From an uncultured Chloroflexia bacterium (lineage in GTDB: Bacteria > Chloroflexota > Dehalococcoidia > GIF9 > AB-539-J10): a DNA stretch of 64,000 nucleotides. Within the stretch, counting starts at the first letter, position 1. Each line of letters begins with the position of its first letter. Shown here piece by piece: positions 26,914 to 57,980 of this stretch. Made by a program: the position numbers and the translations under genes. The notes below the pieces were generated by a model. That model did no database searches. It was not told where the DNA came from and was given only the letters and a program-made list of their open reading frames with translations. The stretch spans positions 384,434 through 448,433 of the forward strand of contig CAVYNS010000003.1 in NCBI GenBank assembly GCA_963769975.1, in the 5' to 3' direction.

Positions 26914-27396
26914 ATGAAAGAGATTTTTGAAATTCTAGAACAGAATGCCCGAGCCACTCCGGCACAGATTGCCACCTTGGTGGGTAAACCCGTCAGAGAA
27001 GTAGAAAAAATAATTAAGCAAGCTGAGAAAGATGGGACTATTCTGAAATATAAAGCCATAGTAAACTGGCCTAAATTAGAAAAGGAAGATATATGGGCTT
27101 TAATCGAAGTCAGAGTAACACCACAACGTGGTGTGGGCTTCGATGCCATTGCCGAGCGCATTTATCAATTCCCCGAAGTGTATTCTGCCTATCTAGTCTC
27201 CGGCACCTATGACCTATCTATATTAGTGAGAGGCAAAAATATGCAGGAAATTTCCAGCTTTGTCGCAGAGAAACTAGCTCCTCTAGACCAGGTGCAAAGT
27301 TCCGTCACCCATTTTCTGCTCAAACGATATAAGGAGTATGGGGAAACTTTTCACCTTCCTAAGGAAACAAATAGACGTTTACCAATAACGCCGTAA
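26914..27396 (+). CDS. Lrp/AsnC-family transcriptional regulator
   Basis: 160 aa; N-terminal HTH plus a C-terminal RAM domain. Confidence 0.8.
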   Translation: MKEIFEILEQNARATPAQIATLVGKPVREVEKIIKQAEKDGTILKYKAIVNWPKLEKEDIWALIEVRVTPQRGVGFDAIAERIYQFPEVYSAYLVSGTYDLSILVRGKNMQEISSFVAEKLAPLDQVQSSVTHFLLKRYKEYGETFHLPKETNRRLPITP

Positions 27397-27397
27397 T

Positions 27398-28603
27398 ATG
27401 CCAAAGACAAAGTCCACTGCAACCGAAGCCCCAGATAACCTGATTTCACAAAAGGTAGCTACGCTGCCGCCATCAGGCATCAGAAAGTTTTTCGACCTGC
27501 TTTCCTCCATGGAAGACGTTATCTCGCTTGGCATAGGTGAACCTGATTTCGTTACTCCCTGGCATATCAGGGAGGCCGGCATATATTCTCTGGAAAAAGG
27601 CTATACAATGTATACCTCGAATTCCGGCATGCCGGAATTACGCCAGGAACTAGCCAGCTATTTGGAGATTCATTACGGGGTAAGCTATCATCCTGAGCAC
27701 GAAATCCTCATTACTGCAGGAAGTAGTGAAGGACTAGACCTTGTTCTGAGAGCAATTATCAATCCCGGTGACGAGGTCGTAATCCCCGACCCTTGCTATG
27801 TAGCTTATCCTGCCGACATCACTCTGGCTGGTGGCACGCCTATTCTTATTCCCACAAACGAAAAAAACAACTTTGTTATCAGGGCCACCGATATTGAAGC
27901 CAAGATCACGAAGAAGACGAAGGCTATTTTGATAGGTTACCCGGCGAATCCCACGGGTGCAGTCATGTCCAAAAAAGAGGCGGATGCCATTGCCGAGCTG
28001 GCCAAAAAGCATGACCTATTGGTAATATCGGATGAGATATATGCTCGTTTGGTTTATGGGGTGGAACATGTCTGTTTTCCCAGCCTTCCCGGGATGAAGA
28101 AGCGTACCCTCTTGATTAGCGGATTTTCTAAATCTCACGCCATGACTGGTTGGCGTATTGGCTATGTGGCAGCCGATCGCCGTTTCATTCAGGCCCTGAC
28201 AAAAATTCATCAATACACTTTGCTCTGTGCCCCGACGATGACGCAGATGGCAGCCATCGAGGCCTTAAAAAATGGTGAGAGCGAGGTCGAAAAGATGGTT
28301 CAAGAGTACAACAGACGCCGTCGCTTCATGGTCAAAAGATTGAATGAGATTGATCTGTCCTGTTTTGAGCCCAAGGGTGCTTTCTTTGCCTTTCCCTCCA
28401 TAAAAGCTACTGGAATGAATTCAGAAGAATTTGCTGAAAAACTGCTATTGGCAGAAAAAGTTGCCGTGGTCCCGGGCGTTGCCTTCGGACCATGCGGTGA
28501 AGGTTTTGTCCGCTGCTGTTACGCTACTTCGTTACCCAATATCGAGGAAGCACTGAGAAGAATGGACAGATTCATCAGAAAAAGCAGGCGATCCACAGCA
28601 TAA
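27398..28603 (+). CDS. class I/II (aspartate-type) aminotransferase
   Basis: 401 aa; PLP-lysine region SGFSKSHAMTGWRIGY. Confidence 0.85.
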   Translation: MPKTKSTATEAPDNLISQKVATLPPSGIRKFFDLLSSMEDVISLGIGEPDFVTPWHIREAGIYSLEKGYTMYTSNSGMPELRQELASYLEIHYGVSYHPEHEILITAGSSEGLDLVLRAIINPGDEVVIPDPCYVAYPADITLAGGTPILIPTNEKNNFVIRATDIEAKITKKTKAILIGYPANPTGAVMSKKEADAIAELAKKHDLLVISDEIYARLVYGVEHVCFPSLPGMKKRTLLISGFSKSHAMTGWRIGYVAADRRFIQALTKIHQYTLLCAPTMTQMAAIEALKNGESEVEKMVQEYNRRRRFMVKRLNEIDLSCFEPKGAFFAFPSIKATGMNSEEFAEKLLLAEKVAVVPGVAFGPCGEGFVRCCYATSLPNIEEALRRMDRFIRKSRRSTA

Positions 28604-28758: not shown

Positions 28759-30101
28759 ATGGCTGGAGAAAAGGGAAAAAGGGCGATAAACCGGCTGAAA
28801 TCAATGCACCCGCTCAGGGCTAAGGTAAATGAAACATATCTAAAGAGTGTTGAAGCTATACAAGCAGGCAAGCCTGCTGTCTGGGGTATGCTCAATTTCT
28901 ACTATGGCGACCCCATCCTGAAAGCCATGGATATAGAAGTGGTCTACCCCGAAAATTATGGCGCCATTGCCGCGGCTACAGGAGTTGCCCGGCAATACCT
29001 GGACCGGGCTGATGCCGAGGGGTTTCCCACCCATCTTTGCGGTTATAGCCTGACCACCCTAGGCTATGCGTCCAGGATGATGAAAGAATTGAAGGGGCAG
29101 ATACCTCCGGAAGCACCCCTCGGAGGAATGCCCAAGCCCCTATTTCTAATGTCCTCAGCTGCCATCTGTGATGCAAGGTACAAGTGGTTCCAAGCGCTGG
29201 GACGTTATATGGATGTCCCGGTATGGCCACTGGAAGCCCCTCTCCCAGGCATCAAGGAATTTTTCATCGAGGGCTATTATGACAGAATGGTGAAACTGGG
29301 AGTCAAGCACCTGAGGGACTTTGTTGCTTTCGTGGAAGGCATGGTAGGCAAGAAGATGGACTGGGACAAGCTGGATAAAACAGCGAACCTCATGATAGAG
29401 GTTAACCGTGTTTGGCATGAAGTCAACGAACTGCGCAAGGCAAAGCCTTGCCCAATGCACAGCCGGGACTTCTGGAGTGCCATGCCCGCTGCCCTGTTCC
29501 TGGCTGGCGACCTCGAGGACTCACTGAGACTCTACCAGGATATGTACAAGGAGGTCAAAGATAGAGTCAATAACCATGTAGGCGCCATCCCCGATGAAAA
29601 ATACCGGCTGGTATTCGCCGAGCTCCCCCCTGGCATAGCCTAGCCTTCTTCGACAGGCTGGCTGAGAGAGGATGGAACTTCGTCATTGAGAGCGTTGGCT
29701 ACCATCCACCTATACCCTTGGACCTCAGCAAGGTCAGTGACCCACTGGAGCGCATCACCAAGTTCAGCCTCCAGTTCCTTGTCGGCTACTACGAAGATGC
29801 CCGGAAACAGAACGTGCTCGGCGGCACCACCGCCTATCCTTACCTGAAGTATGCCAGGGAATGGAAGTGCGATGGAGCGCTTCTTCATCCCCTTATCACC
29901 TGCCGCAGCGCTTCTACACACCTTCCATACGTCTCAGATATGCTCATGGAGAAACTGAAGGTGCCCTCACTGAGCATCGAAGGCGATATCGTAGACCTCC
30001 GCCTGTTTAACCCGGAAGACGCCTTAGCCAAGGCAGAGCCGTTCGAGGAAACTATGGAGCACTACAGAAAAATGAGGAAACAGGCAGGGTCCGACTGGTG
30101 A
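28759..30101 (+). pseudogene. 2-hydroxyacyl-CoA dehydratase / benzoyl-CoA reductase B/C-type subunit (HgdB/BcrB-like), split by a frameshift
   Basis: N-terminal 294-aa ORF (28759-29643) and C-terminal 127-aa ORF (29718-30101) in different frames; the second frame is open from 29598 and the two overlap at a C7 run (29624-29630); together they total ~420 aa, the expected length. Confidence 0.6.
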
Positions 30102-30137: not shown

Positions 30138-31304
30138 ATGTCAGACAAAAATAAAGGTCTCAGCAAAGCCCGGGAAATCTATTCAAATAACTCACAGAGA
30201 GCCAGGGAGCTCAAGGCAGCGGGCAAAAAAATAATAGGCTATCCTTGTGTCTACGTCCCACTGGAGATGCTGACTGCCCTTGACCTTGTCCCTTACCGGA
30301 CATGCGGCGATATAAAGGAACCGGTCACTGAAGCAGACAGAGCTTTGCCTCATTCATTCTGCCCTATCATGCGCAACTGCCTCGATTGCGCCCTGAAGGG
30401 CAAAAACGATTTCCTTGATGGCATGGTTACCATTCACTCCAGCGACCCTCAGGAAAAAACAGCGCGCGTCTGGGAATCTTATACCAACTATCCCTACTTC
30501 CACTTCATAGACATGCCCATAACAGTCCGTCCCGAGGCTCTGGAATACTTCAAAAGCCAGCTAAGCGACTTCAGAAAGACTTTGGAGGCTTTCACCGGGA
30601 AGAAACTGTCTACAGACAAGCTTAAGGCAGCTATTAAAGCCCATAACCGGCAGCGGGCTCTAGTGAGAGAACTATACGAGCTGACAAAGTCTTCTCCTCC
30701 CTATATCTCGGGAACGGAAATCGTTCAGGTAGTAAAAACTCTGACAAGCCTGCCTGTAGTTGAAGGGAATGACCTGCTAACTGAGACTATAAGCGGAGTC
30801 AAAAACCGTACCGATAGACCAGAAAAGAAATCAGCGCGTCTCCTTATATGGAGCAGTACCCTTGACGATACCGACATCATGCAAGTATTCGAAACTAAGG
30901 CAAATGTGGTGATGAACGAAAGCTGTGGCGGTATCAGGGCTTACAGAAGTGAGGTAAAATCCACTGCTGACCCGCTGGAAGGGCTGGCCGACTACTATCT
31001 CAACGAAATCACCTGCGCCCGCACCTTCAGGCAGGCCACCCTCGGCGAGACCAGAAAGGACTATGCCCGAGACCTGCAAAGCCGTTTCGGCTATCTTAAA
31101 GGCATCATCAAAGACTGGAAAATTAACGGCGCCATAATGCTGCTCGTCAGGTACTGTGACCCCTTTGCCTTCGAAATGCCATCGCTCAAAGACTATTTCA
31201 ACAGCCTCGGCGTTCCCAGCACCTATATAGAATACGACTATACTACAGGAGCCCTGGCCCCATTGAGGACCAGGGTCGAAGCCTTCCTTGAGACAATCAG
31301 CTAA
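30138..31304 (+). CDS. 2-hydroxyacyl-CoA dehydratase / benzoyl-CoA reductase subunit (HgdA/BcrC-like)
   Basis: 388 aa; conserved Cys ligands of the HgdAB/BcrBC family. Confidence 0.75.
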   Translation: MSDKNKGLSKAREIYSNNSQRARELKAAGKKIIGYPCVYVPLEMLTALDLVPYRTCGDIKEPVTEADRALPHSFCPIMRNCLDCALKGKNDFLDGMVTIHSSDPQEKTARVWESYTNYPYFHFIDMPITVRPEALEYFKSQLSDFRKTLEAFTGKKLSTDKLKAAIKAHNRQRALVRELYELTKSSPPYISGTEIVQVVKTLTSLPVVEGNDLLTETISGVKNRTDRPEKKSARLLIWSSTLDDTDIMQVFETKANVVMNESCGGIRAYRSEVKSTADPLEGLADYYLNEITCARTFRQATLGETRKDYARDLQSRFGYLKGIIKDWKINGAIMLLVRYCDPFAFEMPSLKDYFNSLGVPSTYIEYDYTTGALAPLRTRVEAFLETIS

Positions 31305-32169
31305 TAGCAACCCCCAAGAGGTCTGCTTGTATTTCGCCGGTGTTGACATAGGTTCCACCATGACCAAAGTCGTGCTCATCGACAAGAGCAGCAATTTACT
31401 TTCGGCCATCAAGGGCCCTACCGGTCCAGAGTATCGCCAGCTTGCCAACGAGGTTATGCGGCAGGCACTGGAGCAAGCCAGCTTGCAGATTGATGACATC
31501 TCCTATATCGTAGCTACAGGCTATGGACGGTTCAACGTCCCTTTCGCAGACCGTCAAATAACAGAGCTTTCCTGCCATGCCCGAGGCGTCTCCAGCCTTT
31601 TTCCCAATGTCAGAACTGCCATTGATATAGGCGGCCAGGATGCCAAGTGTATGAAAATTAATAACGGCAAGCTGACCAGCTTCGTTATGAACGACAAGTG
31701 CGCCGCTGGAACCGGGAGGTTTCTTGAAGTGACTGCGGTTACACTTGGTATCAGGCTGGAAGACATGGGAGACATTTCCCTTAAAGCCACAAAAAAAATC
31801 CAGATAAGCAACCTGTGCACTATCTTCGCCCAGCAAGAAGTAGTAGCGCTCCTCTCCCGCGGGGAAAAGCTGGAGAACATCCTGGCCGGACTTCACGATG
31901 CCCTGGCCAGCCGCGTAGCAGCGCTGGCACGGCGGCTCGGGATAGAGCCCGACCTGGTGCTCACAGGTGGCGTTGCCAAGAACACCGGCATGGTTAGGGC
32001 AATGAAAGAAAGCCTGGGCTGCGAAATCTTCGTTCCTGAAGAGCCACTTCTGACCGGGGCGCTTGGCGCTGCCATCATGGCAAAGGAAATCTACATGAAA
32101 GCAGTGGCAGTGGGTGAGGCCTTGCCCACAAAATCACGGCGGTTAGAAAAAGCCACCTTCTTCAGTTAG
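31288..32169 (+). CDS. CoA-substrate-specific enzyme activase / ATPase (BadF/BadG/BcrA/BcrD/HgdC family)
   Basis: 293 aa; the N-terminus YFAGVDIGSTMTKVV is an ASKHA ATPase phosphate-1 motif. Confidence 0.8.
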   Translation: MRQSANSNPQEVCLYFAGVDIGSTMTKVVLIDKSSNLLSAIKGPTGPEYRQLANEVMRQALEQASLQIDDISYIVATGYGRFNVPFADRQITELSCHARGVSSLFPNVRTAIDIGGQDAKCMKINNGKLTSFVMNDKCAAGTGRFLEVTAVTLGIRLEDMGDISLKATKKIQISNLCTIFAQQEVVALLSRGEKLENILAGLHDALASRVAALARRLGIEPDLVLTGGVAKNTGMVRAMKESLGCEIFVPEEPLLTGALGAAIMAKEIYMKAVAVGEALPTKSRRLEKATFFS

Positions 32170-32177
32170 GAGCACCG

Positions 32178-32972
32178 ATGAGCTGGTTTATGGGCATTGA
32201 CATAGGCTCGGCATACAGCAAAGGAGTCATAATTAAAGACTTCGAGCTTGTTGCTTCACATATAATCATATCTGGAGCTAATTACCGAAAATCTGCCGAG
32301 GCTATAAGGACGGAGTTAATAAGACAGGTCAATCTGACTCAGAATGACATAGCCCATACTGTTGCCACTGGTTCCGGTGCCGACAATGTTTATTTTGCCA
32401 ACCAGAAGGCAAGCGATATAGTCTGCACTGCCAGAGGCATAAACAACTTCTTCCCGCAAGCCAGGACTGTAATCGATGTAGCCAGTCAATCCACCAAGGT
32501 AATACGGCTAAATGAAGAAGGAATTGTGACCAACTTCACTGTCAGCGAGAAATGTGCCGCCGGCGGCGGTCGCTTTATTGAGGTCATCGCCAACGTGCTG
32601 CGAATAGATTTGAGCGATTTTGGCCCGCTTGCAGCCAGGTCAAAGACCCCCATCACATTTAGTACGGGCTGTGCTGTTTTCGGCGAATCCGAAGCCATCA
32701 CCAGAATAAGCGAAGGCATCCCAAAAGAAGACATCGCCGCTGGTGTTAACAAAGCCCTGGCAAGCAAGATTTCCTCACTGGTCAAGAAGCTTAAGCTGGA
32801 AGAACCCTGCGCCATCTGCGGCGGCGGTGCCCTCAACACCGCTCTTGTCAAGACCATAGAAGGCGAATTAAACACCAACCTCCTGGTACCACTACACCCC
32901 CAGCTCATTACCGCTCTGGGCGCCGCCATAATCGCTAGGACATCAGCGACCTCAGAATCGACCAAAAAATAG
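32178..32972 (+). CDS. second activase ATPase (BadF/BadG/BcrA/BcrD/HgdC family)
   Basis: 264 aa; N-terminus FMGIDIGSAYSKGVII; paralogue of the previous gene. Confidence 0.8.
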   Translation: MSWFMGIDIGSAYSKGVIIKDFELVASHIIISGANYRKSAEAIRTELIRQVNLTQNDIAHTVATGSGADNVYFANQKASDIVCTARGINNFFPQARTVIDVASQSTKVIRLNEEGIVTNFTVSEKCAAGGGRFIEVIANVLRIDLSDFGPLAARSKTPITFSTGCAVFGESEAITRISEGIPKEDIAAGVNKALASKISSLVKKLKLEEPCAICGGGALNTALVKTIEGELNTNLLVPLHPQLITALGAAIIARTSATSESTKK

Positions 32973-33550: not shown

Positions 33551-34972
33551 TTAAACAGTGACCTTTATCAGCCAGACATCATAGTCCCCGTACGAAGATG
33601 TGGAACCGGCAATGATGTATCCTCCATCTGAGGTTTGCTGGACTGAGTAGCCATAGTCGTCACCTGAACCGCCAAAGGTCTTGTTCCACGCCAAATTTCC
33701 TGAAGAATCGGCCTTTATCAGCCAGACATCCCCACCGCTATACCAGGACAACGCCGTGTAACCGGCAATGATGTAGCCTCCGTCCGAGGTTTGCTGGACT
33801 GAGTGGCCATAGTCACAAGATGAACCGCCAAAGGTCTGGTTCCACGCCAAATTTCCTGAAGAATCGGTCTTTATCAGCCAGACATCACTACAGCCAGCCC
33901 CGTAGGAATATGTGTTAGCGATAATGATGTATCCTCCGTCCGAGGTCTGCTGCACGGAGTCGCCTTCGTCATCCAGGGAACCGCCAAAGGTCTTGTTCCA
34001 CGTTTCATTTCCTGCAGAATCTGTCTTTATCAGCCAGACATCACGACTGCCAGCCCCGTAGGAATCTGTGCAACCGGCAATGATGTATCCTGCATCCGAG
34101 GTTTGCTGAACCGAGTACCCCTCGTCATAACCTGAACCGCCAAAGGTCTTGTTCCACGCCAGATTTCCTGAAGAATCCGTCTTCATCAGCCAGACGTCCC
34201 TATCGCCAGCCCCGTAGTATTGTGTGGAACCGGCAATGATGTATCCTCCATCCGAGGTTTGCTGAACTGAGTACCCCTCGTCATAACCTGAAGCGCCAAA
34301 GGTCTTGTTCCACGCCAGATTTCCTGAAGAATCCGTCTTCATCAGCCAGACATCTAAAACGCCACCCTCGTATGAATATGTGTAACCGATAATGATGTAT
34401 CCTCCGTCCGAGGTTTGCTGGACCGAGTAGCCATAGTCATAATCTGAACCGCCAAAGGTCTTGTTCCACGCCAAATTTCCTGAAGAATCTGTCTTTATCA
34501 GCCAGACATCAACATTGCCAGCGCCGTAGGAATCCGTGTAACCGGCGATGATGTATCCTCCGTCCGAGGTTTGCTGGACTGAGTAGCCCCGGTCAGTACC
34601 TGAACCGCCAAAGGTCTTGCTCCATGCTACTTCAGGATTATAATAGGTAGTAGCCCTGAAATTAGCGGCGATGTTCTTATCCGAGTCCATGGTAATGGCA
34701 ATACTGGATGTGTTGCCCGACGCACTACCAGTCCAGTGGTCAAAAGTATAACCACTAGCAGGGCTGGCTGTTAGTGTCACCTGTGCACCAGATTCATATT
34801 GGCCACCTGAAGGGGAGACCGAGCCTGCTCCTATGGGGTCAACGACTGTGGTAAGCTTGTAAGTCTCGGCAGAAGCTGGTCCCTCCCATGGTTTGAAAAC
34901 AAATAAGACTATCGCTACGATAATAGCTATGGTGCAACCTACGATGATTCCTGCCAGCTTTTTCTTACTCAT
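33551..34972 (-). CDS. membrane-anchored protein with an InlB-B-repeat-like domain and ~8 beta-propeller (SBBP-like) repeats
   Basis: 473 aa; N-terminal TM helix, [12 protein letters not shown] Ig-like segment, then ~48-aa tandem units ([28 protein letters not shown]). Confidence 0.7.
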
Positions 34973-35058
34973 TCAATTCTCCCCTATTAGCATTATCAAG
35001 CAGAACTAGGATGTCTGGTCTAAGCAATGTCAATCCTCTCCAAATCCACTTAGCTTAT

Positions 35059-35427
35059 CTAGACATCGGCTGACCGCTCAAACTTACAATCTATGTAACC
35101 GTTAGGCTTGAAAACAACTTTAATGCAATTATATGTTTTCTGGCCGTAACTGCCTTTTTTTAAAGAGAATTGGTAGGCAGTATCTAGATTATCCAAAGCT
35201 ATATGAAACAACCATTCTACGATTGCTTTTTCGCCCCAACCTTTGCCCTTCCTTTCATCCCAGTAATCCTTTATTGTCTTCTGGTCTTCCGGGTTGAAAT
35301 AGTGTCGCTCTTTGCGATGGCTAACTCCCGTGTTCTTAGCATACTTGTCAATCCAGTCGTGCAGTTCACCGAATGCAAAACCAGTTCTCTTTTTACTAAT
35401 AGCACAGTGCTTCTTCACGTCAGGCAT
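35059..35427 (-). CDS. hypothetical protein (122 aa)
   Basis: ORF only. Confidence 0.4.
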   Translation of the reverse strand: MPDVKKHCAISKKRTGFAFGELHDWIDKYAKNTGVSHRKERHYFNPEDQKTIKDYWDERKGKGWGEKAIVEWLFHIALDNLDTAYQFSLKKGSYGQKTYNCIKVVFKPNGYIDCKFERSADV

Positions 35428-35520
35428 AGTATTCCCCCTTTTTATACATCATATGAGAATCAAGAATAACAGTCAATACGCCTGAAGGATGCACTGAGAT
35501 TGAGTTTGAGGATAGCTTGA

Positions 35521-35660
35521 GGGATTGTGGGGACACAATAACATAGAACTTTTGCCGTTCAGCGTGCGCGCTTAATGTCGCATAATCACAATACATCACT
35601 CCCAGTTCGTGTAATGAAATAACAAAACAGGCAATTGTTACCCGAACTGCACGAAATATC
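35521..35660. repeat. mosaic intergenic repeat family, copy B (includes a degenerate gene 3' end ...DCGDTIT*)
   Basis: gattgtggggacacaataacatagaacttttgccgttcag ... aataacaaaacaggcaattgttacccgaactg. Confidence 0.6.
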
Positions 35661-35777
35661 CTTTTGTTACATCAGAGGTAACAACTCAAGCTTCTCTTGT
35701 CATAGCTGCACATTATCGACTAATGTTCAATCTTGTTGCAGTCATGAGGCGGCAAAATTGACTTAGTCCATTGAGTG

Positions 35778-36125
35778 TTACTTGCCGATCGGAGATGGTG
35801 CCAACAAACCAGCTAACGCACCTACAGCCGCTGATCCAAGCGCCACGAGTATGTCTGGGGCAGTCTTACCACCTGACACCAGAATAATGCCACCCACAGC
35901 AGCCATCCATGCGAGCGCACCAAGTGCGCCGACGATCATCCGGTATATCCACTTGTCACTATAATATGCTGGTGGCGGCGTCTCTTTTTTGGCCTTGTCG
36001 GCCACCTTTTGCAGTTCTCGGAGGGCTTGGGTGGGATCGGAAGTGCTTATTATGTCTCGCCATGTCTGGGGGTGTTCTTTTAAAATGCTTAACACTTTAT
36101 CGGCAGACCGTTCCTTCTCTTGCAT
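35778..36125 (-). CDS. small membrane protein (2 TM helices)
   Basis: 115 aa; Gly/Ala-rich hydrophobic C-terminal half. Confidence 0.5.
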   Translation of the reverse strand: MQEKERSADKVLSILKEHPQTWRDIISTSDPTQALRELQKVADKAKKETPPPAYYSDKWIYRMIVGALGALAWMAAVGGIILVSGGKTAPDILVALGSAAVGALAGLLAPSPIGK

Positions 36126-36377
36126 TTCTACCTCCTTATTCCAATGTTCGCAGCAAAATAATCCTAGGAACTCAAGTGTTGCTAAACAAGGTAAGTCTCT
36201 ATACGAAAATTAGCCGAATCTGTAAATTCGTAACACATACATTTGACTACGCACTTTGACATTAGTCTCTAAGGGCTACTTCTTATTTAAAATATTCTTA
36301 TAGAAATTACTATACAACTATTTAAGAGAAATTGTCAATAGTTTGTTCGTGGTTTCCAAAACATACTATGGAGTTAA

Positions 36378-36515
36378 GGAGTCACAAAACGCTGCTTTGT
36401 GCAGTGCGCCACAATCGGGATTGTGGGGACACAATAGCATAGAATTTTTGCCGTTCAGGGTGTGTGTTTGAGGTAACAAAACAGACTATTGTTGCCCGAG
36501 TTGAACAATACGTCA
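36378..36515. repeat. mosaic intergenic repeat family, copy C (with a 24-codon ORF ending ...DCGDTIA*)
   Basis: gtcacaaaacgctgctttgtgcag ... gattgtggggacacaatagcatagaatttttgccgttcagggtgtgtgtttgaggtaacaaaacagactattgttgcccgagttg. Confidence 0.6.
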
Positions 36516-36616
36516 GATTGTGTCATCCATGTACGAATCTGTTATGGTTCTATCATAGCTCGGAAGTGACGGGGAGTAGGTTGGATAATCTCTTTTGGAC
36601 GATGTCTGGTAATCAC

Positions 36617-37222
36617 TTACTCGGGCTCAGCAAACTGTTTAGCCGCATTATCCACAATGAGTTGTAAACTTTTCAGGTACTTATCGAACAGGTCGATTGC
36701 TGGCTCTTTGTCCCATGGCTCATCAACGAAATACATATGGTCAATAGTCGCAACTGTTGTAGATTCTCGCTTACGTTTTTTCCGGCGGAGCCGTCTCCTT
36801 ATCGTTCCAATTCGTTGTTTAAAGTATGCCAAAAAATCTTGACGTAAGTAACGTAGCTTACTTCTCCAAGAGCCTCGAATTACAGTAGCAGTCGCTGTAA
36901 CATGAACGCCTATAGATACGTGTGCTTTCATGGTGACGACCTTTCGCACAGAAATACTTTTTTCCTTTAAAACGAAGTTCCTTTGATTTAGGAAGAATTG
37001 TGCTAGTGGGTCTGCTCCTAGTGCGCTCTGTTGGCTCTCATACCATTCTTTGAAGCCGGGAGTGTTATTATATTGCTTTTGTAGCAGAAAGGTAACGCTT
37101 CTTGCCCATACAATAGCCGTTTCAAAAAAGTGGCTGAACTGGATTCGGTCTTGCATTTCAACTGCAACCGCTTTGTCGTAAAAGAAACGGACTTTGTTAA
37201 GACACTTCTGACCTTCAATCAT
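36617..37222 (-). CDS. hypothetical protein (201 aa, Arg/Lys-rich segment)
   Basis: ORF only. Confidence 0.4.
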   Translation of the reverse strand: MIEGQKCLNKVRFFYDKAVAVEMQDRIQFSHFFETAIVWARSVTFLLQKQYNNTPGFKEWYESQQSALGADPLAQFFLNQRNFVLKEKSISVRKVVTMKAHVSIGVHVTATATVIRGSWRSKLRYLRQDFLAYFKQRIGTIRRRLRRKKRKRESTTVATIDHMYFVDEPWDKEPAIDLFDKYLKSLQLIVDNAAKQFAEPE

Positions 37223-37436
37223 TTTTATGTGCCTACACTATGGATATAGACAATCACCGATATTCCTCATTTTAACAGGAATGTTAATCTAAAGATTCCG
37301 AGTGCAAATGGGCGCCAAAGATGTAATAAGAAACCACATAGTCAGGTCACATTTCATCTTTTTGTTACTTGACAATTCTGACGAAGGTGTGATTATGCGC
37401 TATGCTAATCATAATTCGTTCGGACTTTGGAGTGAG

Positions 37437-37841
37437 CTATTTAGAATCTGCCTCAGATATAGTGACCTCTCTGCAAGGAGACCAATTAGAGGAAACGCCG
37501 CTACCAGTACTCACCACCCTTGCTCTGATACAGTAGAGGCCGGAGATATGCCAGGTATGGGATGCGGTTATAGAAGATCCTGAGTCTACCAAGTCACTCT
37601 CGCTATGATTACCGTCTCCCCAGTCAACATAATACTGAACACTAAAGCCCAGGCTAGAACTTGCTCCCCCAATTGTGTACGTCAGGGTTTGTCCTACATA
37701 TCCAGTAGAAGGGCCACTGGGTATATTCGGCGGAATGAGCCACTCAACGTCAGGGTAAAGACGGGGGTGAAACACAACTATGGTGGCTGCTGCACAGGCA
37801 AGTAGAGCCAAGATTAAGACCAGCTTCCACCTAGTTTTCAT
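37437..37841 (-). CDS. small secreted protein (signal peptide)
   Basis: 134 aa; N-terminus MKTRWKLVLILALLACAAAT. Confidence 0.5.
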   Translation of the reverse strand: MKTRWKLVLILALLACAAATIVVFHPRLYPDVEWLIPPNIPSGPSTGYVGQTLTYTIGGASSSLGFSVQYYVDWGDGNHSESDLVDSGSSITASHTWHISGLYCIRARVVSTGSGVSSNWSPCREVTISEADSK

Positions 37842-38180
37842 CCTTGTTCCTCATGTACCACTCATCCTCGAAAGTCTAGTGCCCATACCATCTGCATAAC
37901 AACGTTATGTTGAAGATATTTCTATCAAACAACTTGCCTGTTTCGAAGATCAAGTGTAGCAGAAAGACATGCCTCTTGAGAATATTGTCAAAGGCAATCT
38001 TTGGCACCATTCCCAATATGCAGAAGGATGTAATCGGCTCCCGTGCTCGCCCAATAGTAACAATATAGCGGATTGTGTAGTTTTCCAGGCGCTTTTAAGC
38101 GCTAAGAGCACCTTTCCTAGCCTTCCTAGTCATGGATAGCAGAGTTAACAATAAGATGTCTTGTGTAGCCAGCCGGTGTC

Positions 38181-38552
38181 CTACGCCTGAAGCTCATTCA
38201 TAACATCTTCAAGAAGTCTTCGAAACCAAACTTTCTGTCTTGCAGTTTGCACGAGGAGTCTTTTCCATACATCGACAGGTTCTGTAATTGTTGTTTGACT
38301 GCCCCAATTTAATGTATCCTTCGGTTTCCGATAGTACCCGATTCTAATCCAAAGTGGTTTCAGTTCACCTTGAAATTCAATGAGGTCCACAACATCCCAA
38401 TATGGAACACCCTTGGTTCTAGGATTGCTAATGATGACAGCTCTGTCTTTTAATATCCCTCTCTTATTCCCTTCGCCTCCCGGAAACTTAAATGAGACTG
38501 GTTTACCCATTTTTTGTTTGATTTTGTCAATTATTTTACGATCATGTGCCAT
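38181..38552 (-). CDS. hypothetical protein (123 aa)
   Basis: ORF only. Confidence 0.4.
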   Translation of the reverse strand: MAHDRKIIDKIKQKMGKPVSFKFPGGEGNKRGILKDRAVIISNPRTKGVPYWDVVDLIEFQGELKPLWIRIGYYRKPKDTLNWGSQTTITEPVDVWKRLLVQTARQKVWFRRLLEDVMNELQA

Positions 38553-38625
38553 GTAATTTCCCTTTCATAAACTTTTTTGCCGAACTCCACCTGAGACAAT
38601 GCTAAGGTCGGTCTAAATAAGTCAA

Positions 38626-39072
38626 TCAGTCTTTCAAAAGTGTTTTAAAAGCTTGAATATCAAAGGGATCGCTTTCAGCTTGGGATTTCCACTGCTGCAT
38701 CAAGCTCTTCCAGGCAGATGTTTCCTGAAGTTCTTTGAATAGTTTCACAGGGAGATGCCCTTTGAGGTCGTTGAGGTCATAACAAACAAGTTGATAACCG
38801 TAGGACTCGTCGTTCGGGGAAATGTGATCAATAGCAGCGTATAGTGGATGGCACCCCGCCTCATTGATATTTGGATTTCCATACTTCTTCTCGAAGAGCA
38901 TTGACGCATTGGAAAGGGAACATCGCCCTTTCTGCCTGATTATTAGCTCTCTAAGCTGAGAAGGACTTAACTTTTTCTTATTCTTAGTCCATGCAATTTG
39001 GGCTTTAGTTAAATAATAATCATCTTCCATGCTGGCTGTGTCCCATAACTCGTTAAAATTCCTGTCTGACAT
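38626..39072 (-). CDS. hypothetical protein, possible HNH-like nuclease fold
   Basis: 148 aa; Cys/His spacing (GRCSLSN ... GCHPLYAAIDH) loosely resembles an HNH motif. Confidence 0.35.
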   Translation of the reverse strand: MSDRNFNELWDTASMEDDYYLTKAQIAWTKNKKKLSPSQLRELIIRQKGRCSLSNASMLFEKKYGNPNINEAGCHPLYAAIDHISPNDESYGYQLVCYDLNDLKGHLPVKLFKELQETSAWKSLMQQWKSQAESDPFDIQAFKTLLKD

Positions 39073-39349
39073 ATCCTAACCCTGCTCTCCATGATAGTCA
39101 ATCTCCTCAGGTAACCAGCCCTTCTTCCAAGAATTCCAGCCCGGTCGGTTCCTGCTCCAACGCTCACTGCTGCACATAACTGACAAATGTGCAATCTCGC
39201 GCCTGCTCGATAAAAATACATAAGGCAAAATTTCAAGAACTAGCTATTATGTCGGTAATCCCAGGGGGATAGGTGTCAAAATTAACGATGAAAAAACCTC
39301 ACATTTCGGGGAGACATCTGTGCTGGGCAGATAGGCTAAAAGTGTTATA

Positions 39350-40249
39350 ATGGCAAGTAGCAACAGACTCAAGTGTTTAGTTACGAGCGACGAGGTAGCC
39401 TATATGAGCATATCGTCCAAATCATCATTAGAACTGGACGCAGCGAAGAGTCTCATGTGGTGGATAACACATGAGACTCTTGTTCCAATTGACAAGCCAG
39501 ATTGCAGCCAACCATCGAGGCCGGGAGGGAACCCTGATTTTATCTTCCAGGACTCGAGAAAGCGTAAGTATGTATTGGAAGTGACTCGGCTGCTAACTTC
39601 AAAGTTACGCAACCTCGAAAATACGGTAGCTGCCCAAGTTTGTGCTCCAGTAGAGTACCAAATTCCTGGTACCTACGGGTTGCATATCCACTTGACCGAT
39701 CCTCTTGGGCGGGGCAAGATCGCCCCCGAGGTTTTGAAGCAAACAGCGGAGGAAATATCTAGAATATTAAAAGATGGCACTTTGCAGGATACTCAACAAT
39801 TGAGCGCAGGGTTTATCCTTTGGAAGGCAAGGAGCGAAGGCAGTAAGCTAGTACCTTGGATTACCTCGCCGGAACTACCATTTGACCTAACTGATGCCCA
39901 TCCCATCGCCAAGGAACTGCGAAGTGTATTTGAGAAATTGATAGAGGAAGGTGATTTGAAGTTTCGAGGCTATGACCCGTACAGGCTCCTGCTTATTAAC
40001 ACTTCACAATCAGGATTGGACTTAAAATTCCATGCCGGAAGATTCAAGGATGGCAAAGGTATCTTGCTCACCTGGATGGATACTTTATGCCAGCGGATCC
40101 TCAACATCGATGCCATCTTCTTAGAACCCGGTATCAATGTCCGGTCAGCAGGAGGCAAAGTAATGGCAGGGCATAAATACGTTGAGAGCAAGTCTGGTCA
40201 CTACCTTGAGCTCTGGCATCGTAGTAGCGTTCCACCGCTTCTTATCTAG
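39350..40249 (+). CDS. hypothetical protein (299 aa)
   Basis: ORF only. Confidence 0.45.
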   Translation: MASSNRLKCLVTSDEVAYMSISSKSSLELDAAKSLMWWITHETLVPIDKPDCSQPSRPGGNPDFIFQDSRKRKYVLEVTRLLTSKLRNLENTVAAQVCAPVEYQIPGTYGLHIHLTDPLGRGKIAPEVLKQTAEEISRILKDGTLQDTQQLSAGFILWKARSEGSKLVPWITSPELPFDLTDAHPIAKELRSVFEKLIEEGDLKFRGYDPYRLLLINTSQSGLDLKFHAGRFKDGKGILLTWMDTLCQRILNIDAIFLEPGINVRSAGGKVMAGHKYVESKSGHYLELWHRSSVPPLLI

Positions 40250-45593: not shown

Positions 45594-48317
45594 GTGGTTG
45601 ACTACAGCATAGAGGTTTCAGTTACCGAGGGTACGACAAATACTGAGCGTGGAAACTTGTTAGTAGAGTTGATGCGCGATGTATTTGATGCGACTAACCA
45701 TACCAGTGGTCCGTCTATTAGGGTCACTGGTATGGAGATAGATACTACTGCTACTCATAATGTCACCGGCGAGAAGATATATGCCGAGTGCAAGGCTTAT
45801 AGAGAACCTATACCAGCAGATACTATTTCAAAACTATTGGGCAACGTTTTTCTTAAGAACGTAGACCAGGGATGGCTGGTAACTACATCTAAGCTTTCTA
45901 AGGACGCCGAGGGATCAAAGGAAGAGTGGGAGAAGAAACCTCCAGAAGAACGTCGTCGATTACAGGTCTACAATCCTCCTAGACTGCTAACTCTGTTAAT
46001 AGCTTCAAACCGTATCTTTGATCCAGCCAAGATAACAGCTACCTCAGGAACGGAGCAGGGTAACTGGTATTTTCTTCTGACTAATCTTGGTCGTTACTGG
46101 GCAAAGTTGGTAGTAGAGGCAGGCATACCGAGTAGAGTCATCGTCTATAATGCACAGACAGGCGTGTTAGTAAACGATGCGGAGCTTTTGAAAAAACTCA
46201 AACTGACTGACACTAGCCTCCGCGATTTCAATTGGCCAATTCCTTCTCCCAATGGTTCAGGGGTGGGAGAGTTGCTTGCCTACTTATCGGAAACGGTTGT
46301 TGATGTCGCGACTGGTGATACTTGGGCGGATTATCGTCCTGCCAGACCTCAAGACTTTGTGGGTCGGCATGATCTTCAAGATACTATGCGAGATTTATTT
46401 CTAGGTATTAGGAATAGAAGTACTAACACTCGTTTATTCTCAATAACTGGACCGTCGGGATGGGGTAAAAGTTCTTTAATTGCGAAACTACGGGACCGCT
46501 GTAGTAATAAGGCAAATCGTAAGAAATTTTACATGACTGCATTTGATATGAGAGCCGCCAAATCGTCAAACTATGTTTCCGCTGCTCTCCTAAGGTGTTT
46601 CTCGTCAGCGATCCAACGAAATTTTATTCTTCGGCCTGTTATGCCACTGCAAGTGGGAGCTCCCACAACGCCTCTTGAAAGTGAATCCTTACAAGATTGT
46701 TTACAACAGCTTAAAGATAAGAACAAAGTACTCATCTTAGTTTTTGATCAGTTTGAGGAGGTACTTACTAAACCCGAATTGAGGCAGCTATTTGATAGAC
46801 TTCGGTTACTCGCTTTGTCAGTGGATGCACAAAAAGAGAATCTTGTCCTTGGCTTTGCTTGGAAAAGCGATGCTTTTCTTCCACAAGATCACCCCGCGTA
46901 CTATCTTTGGCATCAACTCAAGGACAGACGTCTTGATCTGGCTGTGCCACGTTTTGGTTCAAAGGACGTCTCGCAAGCCCTAACACACTTCCAAACCGAA
47001 TTGGGACAACGCTTGAATCCTGTTTTACGCTCACAATTGGTACAGCATTGTCAAGGTTTTCCTTGGCTACTCAAAAAGCTGTGTATTCATGTTCTTAACC
47101 TCGTAAGACGTGATCTAAGTCAGCTGCAGGTGCTAGAGCGAGGACTAGATGTACGAGGACTGTTCGAAGCAGATTTAAGTGGGCTTTCCAGTAAGGAAAC
47201 ACTGTGCCTTAAAGAAATCGCGCGGTTGGCACCTGTTGAATGGGTACAAATTGTCGAACAATTCGGGAATGATACATACACTTCACTACTAGGTAAACTG
47301 TTGATAGTTCGTAGTGGCGACAGGCTGAACCCATATTGGGATATTTTCGGAGACTATCTGCGCACCAATGAAATCCCACATGTGCCTGTGTCTTTTCTGC
47401 CAGGAACTGAAATCCGAACTTTAGCAAGAGCAGCTGTTATTACTGTTATGAACAGGCCAGCAGGAGTCACATTAGAAAAACTGAGCACATCGCTGTCTAT
47501 AAATAGTAGGTCAGCAGGTAATGTTGTTCGAGATTTACAGATGTTTAGTCTTGCAGAGAGAAAAGGTGATCATATCGTTTCAACGATAGCTATCAAGGAG
47601 ACAAGAGATGCAGTCGCTGAGATCGCAAGACTAATCGCTCGCGCCTTAAATAACCACACCTTTACAATTATACTTCGTAGGAATGTAGCAAAGGGTTCAG
47701 AGATTACTGAACAGGATTTGCTTGGGTTCTTTAATGAGGCATTCCGGTATGCGTCACTCCGTGATGTCACAAAGAGAATGTACACACTCCGACTCGCCAA
47801 ATACTTGACGGCAACCCGCTTTCTCGAGCGTGTTCCTAGCGTATGGATACTCATTGATGAATTGACGGGACAGTTGATATTAATGCCAAGAGTTAGAGGT
47901 GCAGGTGAGTTTCTAGGAGATGCTCCTCCTGGAAGAGTTTTGGAGGTGCTGCAGAAGCTGTCGGAGTCTCCTGTGCCGAGAGCAGTCTTGAATAAGTCTC
48001 GTCTGAGGAACGCGACAGCATGTGCAATAATGCTGGAGCTCGCAAGCACACGTGATGGCATCGTTTACAGGCTAGAAGATACTAAGGACATGGAGGCTTC
48101 ACTAGTTGGAGCAGTAACCAACACTAGGTCTTTTAAGATAGTTTCAGAGCTTATCTGCAAATCTCCCAACATATCAGCAACGGAAATCGGTAAAACTCTG
48201 TCTGCCCACCTTGATTTGCCTTGGAGTGAGGCATCAAACCTTCGCCGTGGTAACGCGCTTCGTAGGTGGGTTCGGTGGTCGCAAAGTCAGACTTCCACAC
48301 GATCGGAGCCTGTATAG
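45594..48317 (+). CDS. STAND-type P-loop NTPase with an N-terminal Mrr-like PD-(D/E)xK nuclease domain (Avs-like antiviral STAND candidate)
   Basis: 907 aa; N-terminus GMEID ... EKIYAECKAY (D ... ExK); Walker A GPSGWGKSS; Walker B LILVFDQFEE; ~450-aa C-terminal helical region. Confidence 0.75.
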   Translation: MVDYSIEVSVTEGTTNTERGNLLVELMRDVFDATNHTSGPSIRVTGMEIDTTATHNVTGEKIYAECKAYREPIPADTISKLLGNVFLKNVDQGWLVTTSKLSKDAEGSKEEWEKKPPEERRRLQVYNPPRLLTLLIASNRIFDPAKITATSGTEQGNWYFLLTNLGRYWAKLVVEAGIPSRVIVYNAQTGVLVNDAELLKKLKLTDTSLRDFNWPIPSPNGSGVGELLAYLSETVVDVATGDTWADYRPARPQDFVGRHDLQDTMRDLFLGIRNRSTNTRLFSITGPSGWGKSSLIAKLRDRCSNKANRKKFYMTAFDMRAAKSSNYVSAALLRCFSSAIQRNFILRPVMPLQVGAPTTPLESESLQDCLQQLKDKNKVLILVFDQFEEVLTKPELRQLFDRLRLLALSVDAQKENLVLGFAWKSDAFLPQDHPAYYLWHQLKDRRLDLAVPRFGSKDVSQALTHFQTELGQRLNPVLRSQLVQHCQGFPWLLKKLCIHVLNLVRRDLSQLQVLERGLDVRGLFEADLSGLSSKETLCLKEIARLAPVEWVQIVEQFGNDTYTSLLGKLLIVRSGDRLNPYWDIFGDYLRTNEIPHVPVSFLPGTEIRTLARAAVITVMNRPAGVTLEKLSTSLSINSRSAGNVVRDLQMFSLAERKGDHIVSTIAIKETRDAVAEIARLIARALNNHTFTIILRRNVAKGSEITEQDLLGFFNEAFRYASLRDVTKRMYTLRLAKYLTATRFLERVPSVWILIDELTGQLILMPRVRGAGEFLGDAPPGRVLEVLQKLSESPVPRAVLNKSRLRNATACAIMLELASTRDGIVYRLEDTKDMEASLVGAVTNTRSFKIVSELICKSPNISATEIGKTLSAHLDLPWSEASNLRRGNALRRWVRWSQSQTSTRSEPV

Positions 48318-51776: not shown

Positions 51777-54470
51777 TTAGAGATCGCGAATTATCTCGAT
51801 TGCAGGCTTTTGAGCAGCGCGAATCATCACAACACCGGCGCCTGATACTGCCGCTATCACTATACCTAGCACCAGAGCTAGGTATGTCCAGGGCACAAAA
51901 AGGTGCTCCGGCGGCGGATCGAACACACCGCTCATTATTCTGACCATGACTAGGGATAGTGACCATCCGGCAAGTGCACCGAGGACTATGCCACCGACGG
52001 TCAGGAAGAACGCCTCGCTCCATACAAAGGAGGACAACTGTTTGGCGTTTGCCCCAAGGGAGGCTGATATAGCGAATATCCTGCGGCGCTCGGCCAAGCC
52101 AAGAAGGAAGACGAGGCCCGAAGCCCCCGCAGCCAGAATCAATGCAAACAGCAGTTCGAGTTTCGTGAGGCCGGATAGATCAACCGCCGTCAAGCTAGAG
52201 AGTGTGACATGCAATTGGGTTTCGACATCCTGAACAGTCGCTCCCGATGCTGGGCCGAGTAGGTCGCGGATGCGACCGGCTACAACCTGTGGGGAGCCGC
52301 TGGTCTTCACAAGCAGGGTTTCGTAGGCTGACGAACCGGTTTCTTGAGCGATGTACGATGCATTAGCGATGAGAAAGGAATCTCGGGGCGCTGTAGGGAA
52401 TTCGCGTACTATCCCCACGTAATGGAAGTCCACCAGATGGTAAGCGTGGTCGCTGGCAAACTGAAGCCGGATGCGGATTAAGTCACCAGGCTGAAGCTGG
52501 AAATCATTGACGGTCTCTGCCGATACTAGGATGCCATCGGGTCTTGAGGCCAGTTTGCTGAGCATCTCATTCGCGCTTCCGCCTGAGAAGAAAGCGTTGG
52601 ACATCGGGGTTGCCTTGCGGATTAGCTCGGGGTCTATGCCGTAGAGGTCCTGGAGGTCTCTACCCACATATGCGAATCGGTGCTGCATAGGCTCTGCGTC
52701 GATTACACCCGTAATATTCTCTACAGATTGGGCCAACCCCTCCGGAAATCCGCTTGAAGCAGTCGTTGAAACCGTTACATCAGCACCATTGGTGAGTTGA
52801 GCGTCTACCCGGGCCTGATGCGAGTAGGTGGTGTTAAATACCGCAACCGTCACGGCAAATGAGAAGGCCAGCGCGAGGATGACAAGCCCCCTTGATAGCA
52901 GACTTCGTTGCCTTGACATCGATGCCGTTACCACCCCTGACAATCGTTGGGCGATCAGGGTTAGAGCTCGACGTAAGAATGGTTTTCCACGTGCCAGCGT
53001 AAGGTTGGAAAGTCGCCAGATCAGCAAGGCGAAACCAACCCACAGCATGAGGGGGGCCAGTAAAGTTAGGTAATTAATAGAAATGGTCGGGATGCCTTCC
53101 GGCGCGAGGATGACCTGGTAGGCATTTCGCATTGATTGCCAGAATATGATCCCACCGCCGGCAAGCAAAATGATGTCAAGATAAATGAGCGACCACAGTG
53201 GCGGGCGGGGATTCGTTATAGTTAACTGTGCCGCTCTAACGGTGAGACTTCTAGCATCGCGCCACGCTGGTAGAAGGATTGTCATAAAAGAAATGGCGAA
53301 CCCCAAAACCACGGCGGCGATAACCCAAGACACCGCCTGTATTGGCGTTGCTCCGAACCGCGAGGTACCGAACGCAATATGACCTGCGAGCACTGCTCCT
53401 CCGAGGCCCAATACTATTCCTATGGTTCCAACCAGCGCAGCTTCTGCTGCAGCAAGCCTTAGAACCTGCCGGGGCGATGCTCCGCGGATTATGAGAAGCG
53501 CCTGTTCCCGCCGCCGCCTGTCGCCGCCACTCATAGCGATGACGTACACCAACAATGCGGCAAGGACGACGCAGGGAAGGCCGAGAAACAGGAATAATAT
53601 CTGTGCGTAGGTGGCATCAGAACGTGCCCCATCCAGTTGAGCACCGAGATTATTACCCACAATACCGGCGCCTCCAAGTTCTGCTTCAAGACTATGTGCC
53701 CGGTGGATAACTTCGCTAAAGGCTGCCGTGGGATCCGCAGGAAGATCGCTCGCAAGCTTCACGTGAACCTGCATGTGAACGGAATTGGGATTACTCTTTG
53801 CTAACTCGTCAAACATCTGATGCCAGGTTGAGAGGGGCATGAGGACAACATTGTCAGGTGGTGCGGTGGGGTTGGCCCCGGGCACGCCACCGATGCTTTG
53901 GAACAGAGAATCGGCTGCCGGCAGATCGACGATTCCCTGCACTAGAAGCTCCGTTTGTGTCCCACCAGGTAGACCAACCGTCATGGTATCTCCCACCGTT
54001 GCTTGAAGATTTGCCGCGGTCTGTTGCGCCAACAATATGCCTTGGGTAGATCCGACCAGGAACCGGACCTCTCCGAGGAATGACGACGCATACCCGTCAG
54101 GGATCCCAAGGGCCTTGCCCTGTCCTGTTGTCTGAACGGTCCCACCTGCGGAAGTCCGTAGATAAACAACATCAGCGTAGCCCACAGGTTGGGCCTCTAC
54201 GACCCCCTTGGTCTGCTTGATAGTTTGAATGGACTGTATCAAGTCTGCATCCTGCGAGAGCTGAACCTGCCAGTCGACCGGGACCCCAGCGGTGGCTTCT
54301 TTGGTCATGTGGGCCCTGCTGGATACAAAGAACATGCCTAGCGAGGCAATCAGGCTCACTGCGAGACCGACACAAAGAACCATGCCGATCAAACGCGCTC
54401 TTCTTCTTTGTATTAACCCGCTGATCCAAGTCAGACTGAGCAAATGATCACCCCATCTGTAAATGCCCAT
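51777..54470 (-). CDS. ABC transporter permease, FtsX/MacB-like, duplicated (10 TM)
   Basis: 897 aa; two FtsX-type four-helix modules separated by large extracytoplasmic domains. Confidence 0.8.
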   Translation of the reverse strand: MGIYRWGDHLLSLTWISGLIQRRRARLIGMVLCVGLAVSLIASLGMFFVSSRAHMTKEATAGVPVDWQVQLSQDADLIQSIQTIKQTKGVVEAQPVGYADVVYLRTSAGGTVQTTGQGKALGIPDGYASSFLGEVRFLVGSTQGILLAQQTAANLQATVGDTMTVGLPGGTQTELLVQGIVDLPAADSLFQSIGGVPGANPTAPPDNVVLMPLSTWHQMFDELAKSNPNSVHMQVHVKLASDLPADPTAAFSEVIHRAHSLEAELGGAGIVGNNLGAQLDGARSDATYAQILFLFLGLPCVVLAALLVYVIAMSGGDRRRREQALLIIRGASPRQVLRLAAAEAALVGTIGIVLGLGGAVLAGHIAFGTSRFGATPIQAVSWVIAAVVLGFAISFMTILLPAWRDARSLTVRAAQLTITNPRPPLWSLIYLDIILLAGGGIIFWQSMRNAYQVILAPEGIPTISINYLTLLAPLMLWVGFALLIWRLSNLTLARGKPFLRRALTLIAQRLSGVVTASMSRQRSLLSRGLVILALAFSFAVTVAVFNTTYSHQARVDAQLTNGADVTVSTTASSGFPEGLAQSVENITGVIDAEPMQHRFAYVGRDLQDLYGIDPELIRKATPMSNAFFSGGSANEMLSKLASRPDGILVSAETVNDFQLQPGDLIRIRLQFASDHAYHLVDFHYVGIVREFPTAPRDSFLIANASYIAQETGSSAYETLLVKTSGSPQVVAGRIRDLLGPASGATVQDVETQLHVTLSSLTAVDLSGLTKLELLFALILAAGASGLVFLLGLAERRRIFAISASLGANAKQLSSFVWSEAFFLTVGGIVLGALAGWSLSLVMVRIMSGVFDPPPEHLFVPWTYLALVLGIVIAAVSGAGVVMIRAAQKPAIEIIRDL

Positions 54471-56910: not shown

Positions 56911-57980
56911 GTGAGAATTCTCGATCAGGAGGGAAATACCGTGACGGATAGGAAAACAGACAACTTAGAGGATACACTTAGAATGGTACAGGAGGTCTTG
57001 ACAGCTAACAGAAAAGACCTCCGCTCACTGCTCTACAAAGACATTATCCTGAATTCGCTGAAGTGCAAACGAGATGAGCTTGATATTCTTGATCTCAAGG
57101 TCATCAATCGGGCAGTGGCCGAGTTCCGACATGCCGCGTGTGTCTTCAAACCGTACAGGATGGTTCGTAAAGTGTCCATGTTTGGTTCCGCTCGAGTAAC
57201 CAGGCACAGCCCCGACTATGAGCTAGCGCGCAGACTCGGCCGTTTGCTAGTTGAAAAAGGGTTCATGGTAATCACTGGAGCTGCAGAAGGTATCATGAGG
57301 GCGGAATTGAAGGTGCCGGCGCTGAAAACAGTTTTGGAGCTAACATCCTGCTCCCAATTGAAAGGGGGCCTACCAGTATAATTCGAGATGATCCAAAGGT
57401 GGTTCGGTTTAAATATTTTTTCACGCGCAAAATATTCTTTGTAATGGAAGCTGATGCTATTGCGCTATTCCCTGGGGGCTTTGGCACGCATGATGAAGGA
57501 TTTGAAGTGTTAACGTTGCTACAGACAGGTAAAGCACCGCCAATGCCTGTAGTGCTTATGGAATTGCCAGGGGAACAGTACTGGGAAACTTGGGATCAAT
57601 TTATAAGGCAGCAGTTGCTAACCCGGCGCTTTATCTCCCCGGAGGACCTTTCCCTTTACAAGATCATCCATTCTCCCGAGGAGGCGGTAGAATGGATTAG
57701 GTCATACTACGCAACCTACCATTCAACACGCCAAGTACGAGACCAGCTTGTCATCAGGCTAGAGAAAGAGCTTCTGGGCAGTCATATTAGGAAACTAAAC
57801 GAGTCTTTTCAGGACCTCGTTGAGTCTGGGGAAATTGCCAAAACACCCGCTCTAAAAGAGGAAGAAGACGAACCGAACCTCTCATTAAAACCCAGAATTG
57901 CTTTTGCGTACAACAAAAAAAGTGCTGGGCGCCTTAATCAGATGATATTAATGATAAACCAACTGGGCCAAACAATTTGA
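56911..57980 (+). pseudogene. LOG-family (TIGR00730-type) Rossmann nucleotide-binding protein, split by a 1-nt frameshift
   Basis: ORF1 (56911-57381) carries FGSARV ... VITGAAEGIM. The other frame, open from 57255 (track ORF 57399-57980), continues GGIEGAGAENSFGANILLP ... ADAIALFPGGFGT. The frames switch near 57295-57300. Confidence 0.6.

Follow-up and report, generated by a model that had tools for sequence, protein, structure and literature searches.

Background

The ATP-dependent benzoyl-CoA reductases and the 2-hydroxyacyl-CoA dehydratases belong to one superfamily, with subunits of the HGD-D type. The Bzd-type class I benzoyl-CoA and 3-methylbenzoyl-CoA reductases, with the subunits BzdO and MbdO, are encoded by two HGD-D genes clustered with two different BcrAD_BadFG ATPase genes. 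The dehydratases normally use one activator gene, the product of which is a homodimer. Structures are available for BzdO (PDB 8s02), for MbdO (9g87) and for HadB, the alpha subunit of (R)-2-hydroxyisocaproyl-CoA dehydratase (3o3m).

Indels at homopolymers, which break up gene calls, are known as the chief error of Nanopore consensus sequences, and cytosine runs are harder (PMC9262707). In the Microflora Danica project, which has Nanopore-only data assembled with Flye and corrected with one Medaka round, low coding density was tied to long homopolymers.

The window, that is the whole stretch of DNA analysed here, is 64 kb long. The region 28759-30101 of the window is a single gene for a 447-aa subunit of the HGD-D family. 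The subunit is BzdO/HadB-like and the gene is the first in a four-gene cluster, and in the sequence as given it is interrupted by a one-base frameshift.

The gene cluster and its relation to known enzymes

The cluster consists of two different HGD-D genes and two different BcrAD_BadFG ATPase genes, and the same four are found in L001. The initial annotation described it as otherwise intact, in agreement with the state of the three downstream genes (388, 293 and 264 aa). Nucleotide alignments to L014, L012 and L007 reach about 2 kb upstream of the cluster, and the neighbourhood, with a regulator and an aminotransferase, is therefore shared. The features are listed in Table 1.

Table 1. Positions in the window of the broken gene, its neighbours and the second broken gene
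Feature	Position	Strand	Basis and remarks
Lrp/AsnC regulator, intact, upstream	26914-27396	+	full-length Pfam match
Class I/II aminotransferase, intact, upstream	27398-28603	+	full-length Pfam match
5' piece of the broken gene	28759..29643	+	open reading frame list and translation; 294 aa, ATG start
C6 tract, CT before it, one base missing	29625..29630	+	base-by-base read
3' piece of the same gene	29631..30101	+	-1 frame, from TGG (Trp292) to the stop
Partner HGD-D subunit, 388 aa, BzdN/BcrC/HadC-like, intact	30138..31304	+	Pfam HGD-D 263.7 bits, profile 1-342 of 342
First BcrAD_BadFG-type ATPase subunit, 293 aa, intact	31288..32169	+	PF01869 229.7 bits; TIGR00241 271 against a cut-off of 125.4
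Second BcrAD_BadFG-type ATPase subunit, 264 aa, intact	32178..32972	+	PF01869 150.1 bits; TIGR00241 217.3 bits
LOG/TIGR00730-like gene broken by a one-base deletion	56911..57980	+	base missing between 57302 and 57303

Counted from its TTG, the first ATPase gene shares 17 nt with the end of the gene before it. This start is probably too far upstream, because the L001 orthologue begins past the preceding stop codon and is 284 aa long. The second ATPase and its L001 orthologue are equal in length.

By the Pfam and NCBIfam matches, the cluster has the gene set of a class I benzoyl-CoA reductase. A specific enzyme could not be assigned, as the matches to BzdO, BcrB, HadB and the double-cubane reductases are all under the curated cut-offs. 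The repaired protein scored 87 bits with the BzdO equivalog model (TIGR03191, cut-off 448.6) and matched it over residues 62-303 only. The corresponding values were 102.9 bits with the HadB model (NF052455, cut-off 750) and 41.6 bits with the BcrB model (TIGR02260, cut-off 486.55). For the 388-aa partner the NCBIfam matches to double_cubane, bzdN and HadC were likewise all under the equivalog cut-offs. Because the equivalog models lie this far under their cut-offs, the cluster is, as judged from profile scores, placed as a distinct branch of the ATP-dependent benzoyl-CoA reductase/2-hydroxyacyl-CoA dehydratase superfamily. It resembles an ATP-dependent reductase or dehydratase.

Of the solved structures, HadB (3o3m, E = 6.4e-30), BzdO (8s02, 1.6e-29) and MbdO (9g87) match best. 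BzdO is also 447 aa long and shares the HGD-D superfamily and the clustered gene set with the window, but the profile match of the window protein to BzdO falls in two stretches and the gene order differs, with the O-like and N-like genes followed by the two ATPase genes. With HadB the window protein aligns end to end (query 23-441). The aminotransferase gene directly upstream would suit an amino-acid-derived 2-hydroxyacyl-CoA pathway. The presence of two different ATPase genes, instead of one activator gene, separates the cluster from the dehydratases and is a reductase-type layout.

The break site

The break is present in the sequence as given. As the initial annotation had it, the gene is split by a frameshift, and both reported open reading frames were recovered, a 294-aa one that ends at 29643 and a 127-aa one in a frame that is open from 29598. 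Codons 1-291 of the 5' piece (to ...FAELPP) are authentic; three more codons, out of frame (G I A), lead to TAG. The 3' frame stays open until its stop at 30101, and the 127-aa open reading frame is counted from TTG at 29718, the earliest possible start there. The two frames overlap by 46 nt, spanning the C run, where the sequence reads GAG CTC CCC CCT GGC ATA GCC TAG. An overlap across seven C at 29624-29630 had been reported. The overlap at the C run was found, but the length of the run is off by one, because position 29624 is T and the run consists of six C (29625-29630). C6 is thus the observed state and C7 would be the intact one.

Insertion of one C in the window gene gives a continuous ...RLVFAELPPWHSLAFFDRLAERGW... 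protein. The earlier statement that a change of the run by one C restores the reading frame holds for such an insertion. The repaired protein reads ...YRLVFAELPPWHSLAFFDRLAERGW... across the junction and is 447 aa long, not about 420 aa as had been expected for the intact protein. If the full-length product is made, a peptide from this part of it would span FAELPPWHSLAFFDR. Removal of two C was considered as another repair. It yields ELPWH and was rejected because an invariant proline is lost; the conserved sequence is restored only by adding one base.

Homologues of the repaired protein

The repaired protein has a single Pfam match, to HGD-D (PF06050), with 150.3 bits against a gathering cut-off of 28.4. 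The match runs in one stretch from residue 48 to 415, across junction residue 291, and takes in profile positions 3-327 of 342. In the unrepaired 294-aa piece HGD-D is covered only over profile positions 3-207 of 342.

A search of a large protein collection gave 895 relatives of the repaired protein. Among the best 120 of these 895, most (more than 100 homologues) are exactly 447 aa long, with 100% query cover and identities of at most 94%. In an alignment with 21 homologues, down to 65% identity, the junction residues E288, P290, P291, W292 and H293 are invariant, and the invariant ELPPWH junction is kept in the repaired protein. Downstream of the break 50 residues are invariant in the 21 homologues, C382 among them, and the window keeps 50 out of 50. 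The cysteines C94, C137, C231 and C382, the last one downstream of the break, are invariant in the same homologues; we take these conserved HGD-D cysteines to be the ligands of a [4Fe-4S] cluster. In the alignment with HadB (3o3m), cysteines stand opposite three of them (C94, C137 and C382).

Four proteins (P0086, P0091, P0099 and P0117) were considered as split homologues. They are shortened at the N-terminus only and all have ELPPWH in frame.

Compared with the intact relative L028, 15 synonymous and 5 non-synonymous codon differences were found after the break and 35 and 14, respectively, before it. The part after the break shows no trace of decay, and its ratio of synonymous to non-synonymous differences resembles that of the 5' part. 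An old pseudogene is ruled out because the differences after the break look like those before it.

The subunit is found mainly in Dehalococcoidia. Close homologues with 76-77% amino-acid identity were seen in MAGs of the Desulfobacterales/Desulfobacteraceae (L031-L033), and three copies with about 60% identity in one Bathyarchaeia MAG (L050, L051 and L053). These homologues suggest either a transfer across phyla or domains or contamination in binning. A separate observation is that a 9-kb Dehalococcoidia contig (L038) carries paralogous copies at 5168 and 8136, about 3 kb apart, in which the ELPPWH codons differ.

Orthologous loci

The scan for orthologues, with one genome per species, gave 68 loci, mostly from Dehalococcoidia MAGs, and L001 was added as number 69. 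The pattern [FY][AS]E[LIM]PPWH is in frame in 62 of the 69 loci and none of these 62 is split. In the genome loci the leucine at the site is encoded by CTT, CTC, CTG or TTA and each proline by CCC, CCT, CCA or CCG. The combination CTC CCC CCC (C7) was found in 11 genome loci, and CTT CCC CCC or similar in 9. The third codon positions vary freely at the site, and neither the C run nor the frameshift is therefore conserved.

The closest relatives of the window gene (L003, L028, L023, L005 and L002) have 93-95% nucleotide identity to it in pairwise alignments. The only internal indel in these alignments is a one-base gap at the C tract, where the window has CT+C6 and the intact relatives have CTC CCC CCC (C7) or CTT CCC CCC.

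Metagenome contigs were matched at the site with a pattern fitting either state. All 34 matching contigs have the in-frame 26-nt form, 23 of them with C7, and the 25-nt form of the window was found in none of the 34. No tract-length variants that switch the frame were seen: the C7 copies are in frame in 23 of 23 metagenome contigs, where the pattern was unable to match a C8 state, and in 11 of 11 genome loci. A comparison with orthologous loci had been suggested in the initial annotation, with split orthologues as the sign of a two-protein arrangement or a programmed frameshift. The orthologues are unsplit, which removes that scenario.

The only other locus with CT+C6 is L052, which reads GAGCTCCCCCCTGG as in the window. 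It is part of contig_32229 of the long-read MAG MFD04408.bin.2.194 from the Microflora Danica project. Frame breaks were surveyed by tblastn, with six proteins of the window as queries and all of the 68 genome loci as targets. Breaks were found in L052 (6001-7340 and 8558-9410) and L058 (6001-7342 and 8664-9501) only, both from this project and with two breaks each in this cluster. The second break of L052 is a one-base insertion in a GCTGCTGCT stretch of an ATPase gene.

The neighbour-joining tree places the window and L052 in different clades. Each has closer intact relatives, L003, L028 and L023 for the window and L010 (C7) and L006 for L052, and the C6 state has therefore arisen, or been miscalled, twice at the C7 tract. 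That the window comes from the same genome as L052 is ruled out, the two being 87-90% identical and of different clades. Searches for the exact 294-aa and 388-aa products found neither of them in the collections covered.

The second broken gene and other parts of the window

A LOG gene at about 57297 had been pointed out as a second homopolymer frameshift. The gene is broken, but the deletion is not in a long homopolymer, since GGGC-GGA in the window stands opposite GGGCTGGA in five orthologous DNA loci. The repaired LOG-like protein has an LDcluster4 match across the junction, and its homologues, with identities up to 91%, are unsplit and mostly 346 aa long.

For further frameshifts, overlapping open stretches of at least 50 codons were paired on each strand, and Pfam was run on the candidates and on small open reading frames in gene-poor stretches. 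Beyond the LOG-like gene, no further broken genes were found in the window by these paired frames and Pfam matches. The pairs 22456/21920 and 44369/43452 and the gene run from 54448 to 56352 were rejected as frameshifts; they are overlapping neighbours with full-length domain matches.

The other long homopolymers in the window, two C7 and many C6/G6, are mostly in frame within intact open reading frames. An A8 run inside the same four-gene cluster is also in frame within an intact open reading frame. Errors are therefore not rife in the assembly, which is mostly accurate, with two one-base deletions in about 55 genes. Two broken genes in about 55 lie within the range of real pseudogenes in bacterial genomes.

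Some other genes of the window were noted. In a 907-aa protein (45594-48317, + strand) a restriction endonuclease domain of the Mrr type (residues 43-108) is joined to a STAND-type NTPase (nSTAND1/AAA_16, residues 247-488), a predicted layout reminiscent of anti-phage STAND defence proteins. A 473-aa protein (33551-34972, - strand) carries a membrane or signal segment at its N-terminus, one domain like the InlB B-repeat and, after these, about eight tandem repeats of about 48 aa that have no Pfam match. The region 35000-39350, about 4 kb, contains small open reading frames only (115-201 aa) with large gaps between them and no significant Pfam matches, and a 735-aa open reading frame at 58003-60210 is also without a Pfam match. 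Pfam checks gave no sign of broken genes in either of these two regions.

Cause of the missing base

All the evidence fits the original proposal of one gene with a one-base frameshift at the C run, caused by homopolymer error or by recent mutation or slippage. The most likely cause, we infer, is a consensus error of the assembly at the C7 tract, with a probability of roughly 0.65. One base would then be missing from the Leu-Pro-Pro codons (CTC/CTT CCC CCC), leaving CT+C6. A one-base deletion of this kind in the consensus would be a typical C7 undercall in long-read data, in which case the organism probably makes a normal full-length protein. The same C7-to-C6 state in an unrelated Nanopore-only MAG points towards error. 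The second one-base deletion of the window, in another highly conserved gene, also speaks for this reading.

With the known homopolymer errors of Nanopore data the window shares a one-base deletion at a C run that turns a conserved gene into two adjacent open reading frames in different frames. It also shares the position, the same site being one base short in the Nanopore-only L052, which has a frame break nearby. The window differs from such data in that its other C7 and A8 runs are in frame and its second deletion lies outside a long homopolymer.

A real and very recent one-base deletion by replication slippage, in a C7 (or CTT+C6) tract, is a weaker candidate and on balance unlikely. The deletion would have made a young pseudogene in the lineage, or it would be a population variant picked by the assembler. 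The break is there in the given sequence, C7 tracts slip easily, and elsewhere the assembly has its C7 and A8 runs right. The absence of decay suits a very young lesion as well as an error, the second broken gene (LOG) could mean ongoing real gene loss, and a very recent mutation would have looked identical in every test that was run. Against this, none of the about 34 C7-bearing copies (23 metagenome contigs and 11 genome loci) is shifted, and no other short-read orthologue is. The sole other shifted copy belongs to a Nanopore-only MAG with a further frame break in the cluster. Purifying selection is still clear in the three remaining subunit genes and in both halves of the broken one. If the deletion is real, the product of 294 aa would be without Cys382 and the conserved C-terminal third and the enzyme would therefore be inactive; the gene would then be a young pseudogene of the ordinary kind within an accessory metabolic cluster.

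Programmed frameshifting and a true split gene have, taken together, only a very small probability. The larger part of this belongs to slippage on C CCC CCU, either as a programmed -1 frameshift of the ribosome or during transcription, by which the full-length protein would be made at a controlled ratio to the 294-aa product; this is regarded as highly improbable. The sequence at 29625-29631 fits X XXY YYZ in the frame of the 5' open reading frame, and a -1 slip at CCC-CCU reads E-L-P-P-W-H, exactly the conserved junction. The fit is only formal, because any one-base deletion in CTC CCC CCC TGG creates it. The same state is found in a second lineage, L052, but the two shifted copies are not from sister lineages and L052 is from an error-prone assembly. 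The arrangement is not conserved, the site being in frame in 62 loci and 34 metagenome contigs, and synonymous changes break the C run in many orthologues.

The sites of the dnaX type have the same formal heptamer and also reach the correct protein by a -1 slip. The window differs from them by the lack of conservation among orthologues, of a stimulatory structure downstream and of an SD-like element upstream. For the RNA of 29632-29731 the folding energy is -30 kcal/mol, where shuffled sequences have a mean of -27.2 (z = -0.86) and 40 of 200 do at least as well. The 20 nt upstream contain no GGAGG-like sequence. To our knowledge, heptamers of C only are not among the efficient slippery sites of bacteria. 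It is more improbable still that C CCC CCU is both real and functional, so that the window and L052 lineages express the subunit through -1 frameshifting or polymerase slippage. If so, the cytosine tract would set the ratio of truncated to full-length protein in two Dehalococcoidia lineages.

A true two-protein arrangement, with N- and C-terminal polypeptides encoded apart and then assembling, is effectively refuted: two open reading frames can be listed mechanically, but the orthologues are never split, the TTG at 29718 lies 87 nt past the junction without a ribosome-binding site (upstream GCTACCATCCACCTATACCC), a product started there loses the invariant W292 to P320, and the overlap of the frames lies at the very place where adding one base brings back the invariant motif.

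Consequences for annotation

There is no new biology in this break. In Nanopore-only MAGs the C7 tract of this gene family causes trouble repeatedly, and the second one-base deletion within the same 64 kb suggests that polishing or frameshift-aware gene calling is needed, with a check of the assembly for more such deletions. The region 28759-30101 should be annotated as one 447-aa gene, either marked as frameshifted or corrected, and not as two proteins. In metabolic reconstructions the cluster should not be scored as missing a subunit.
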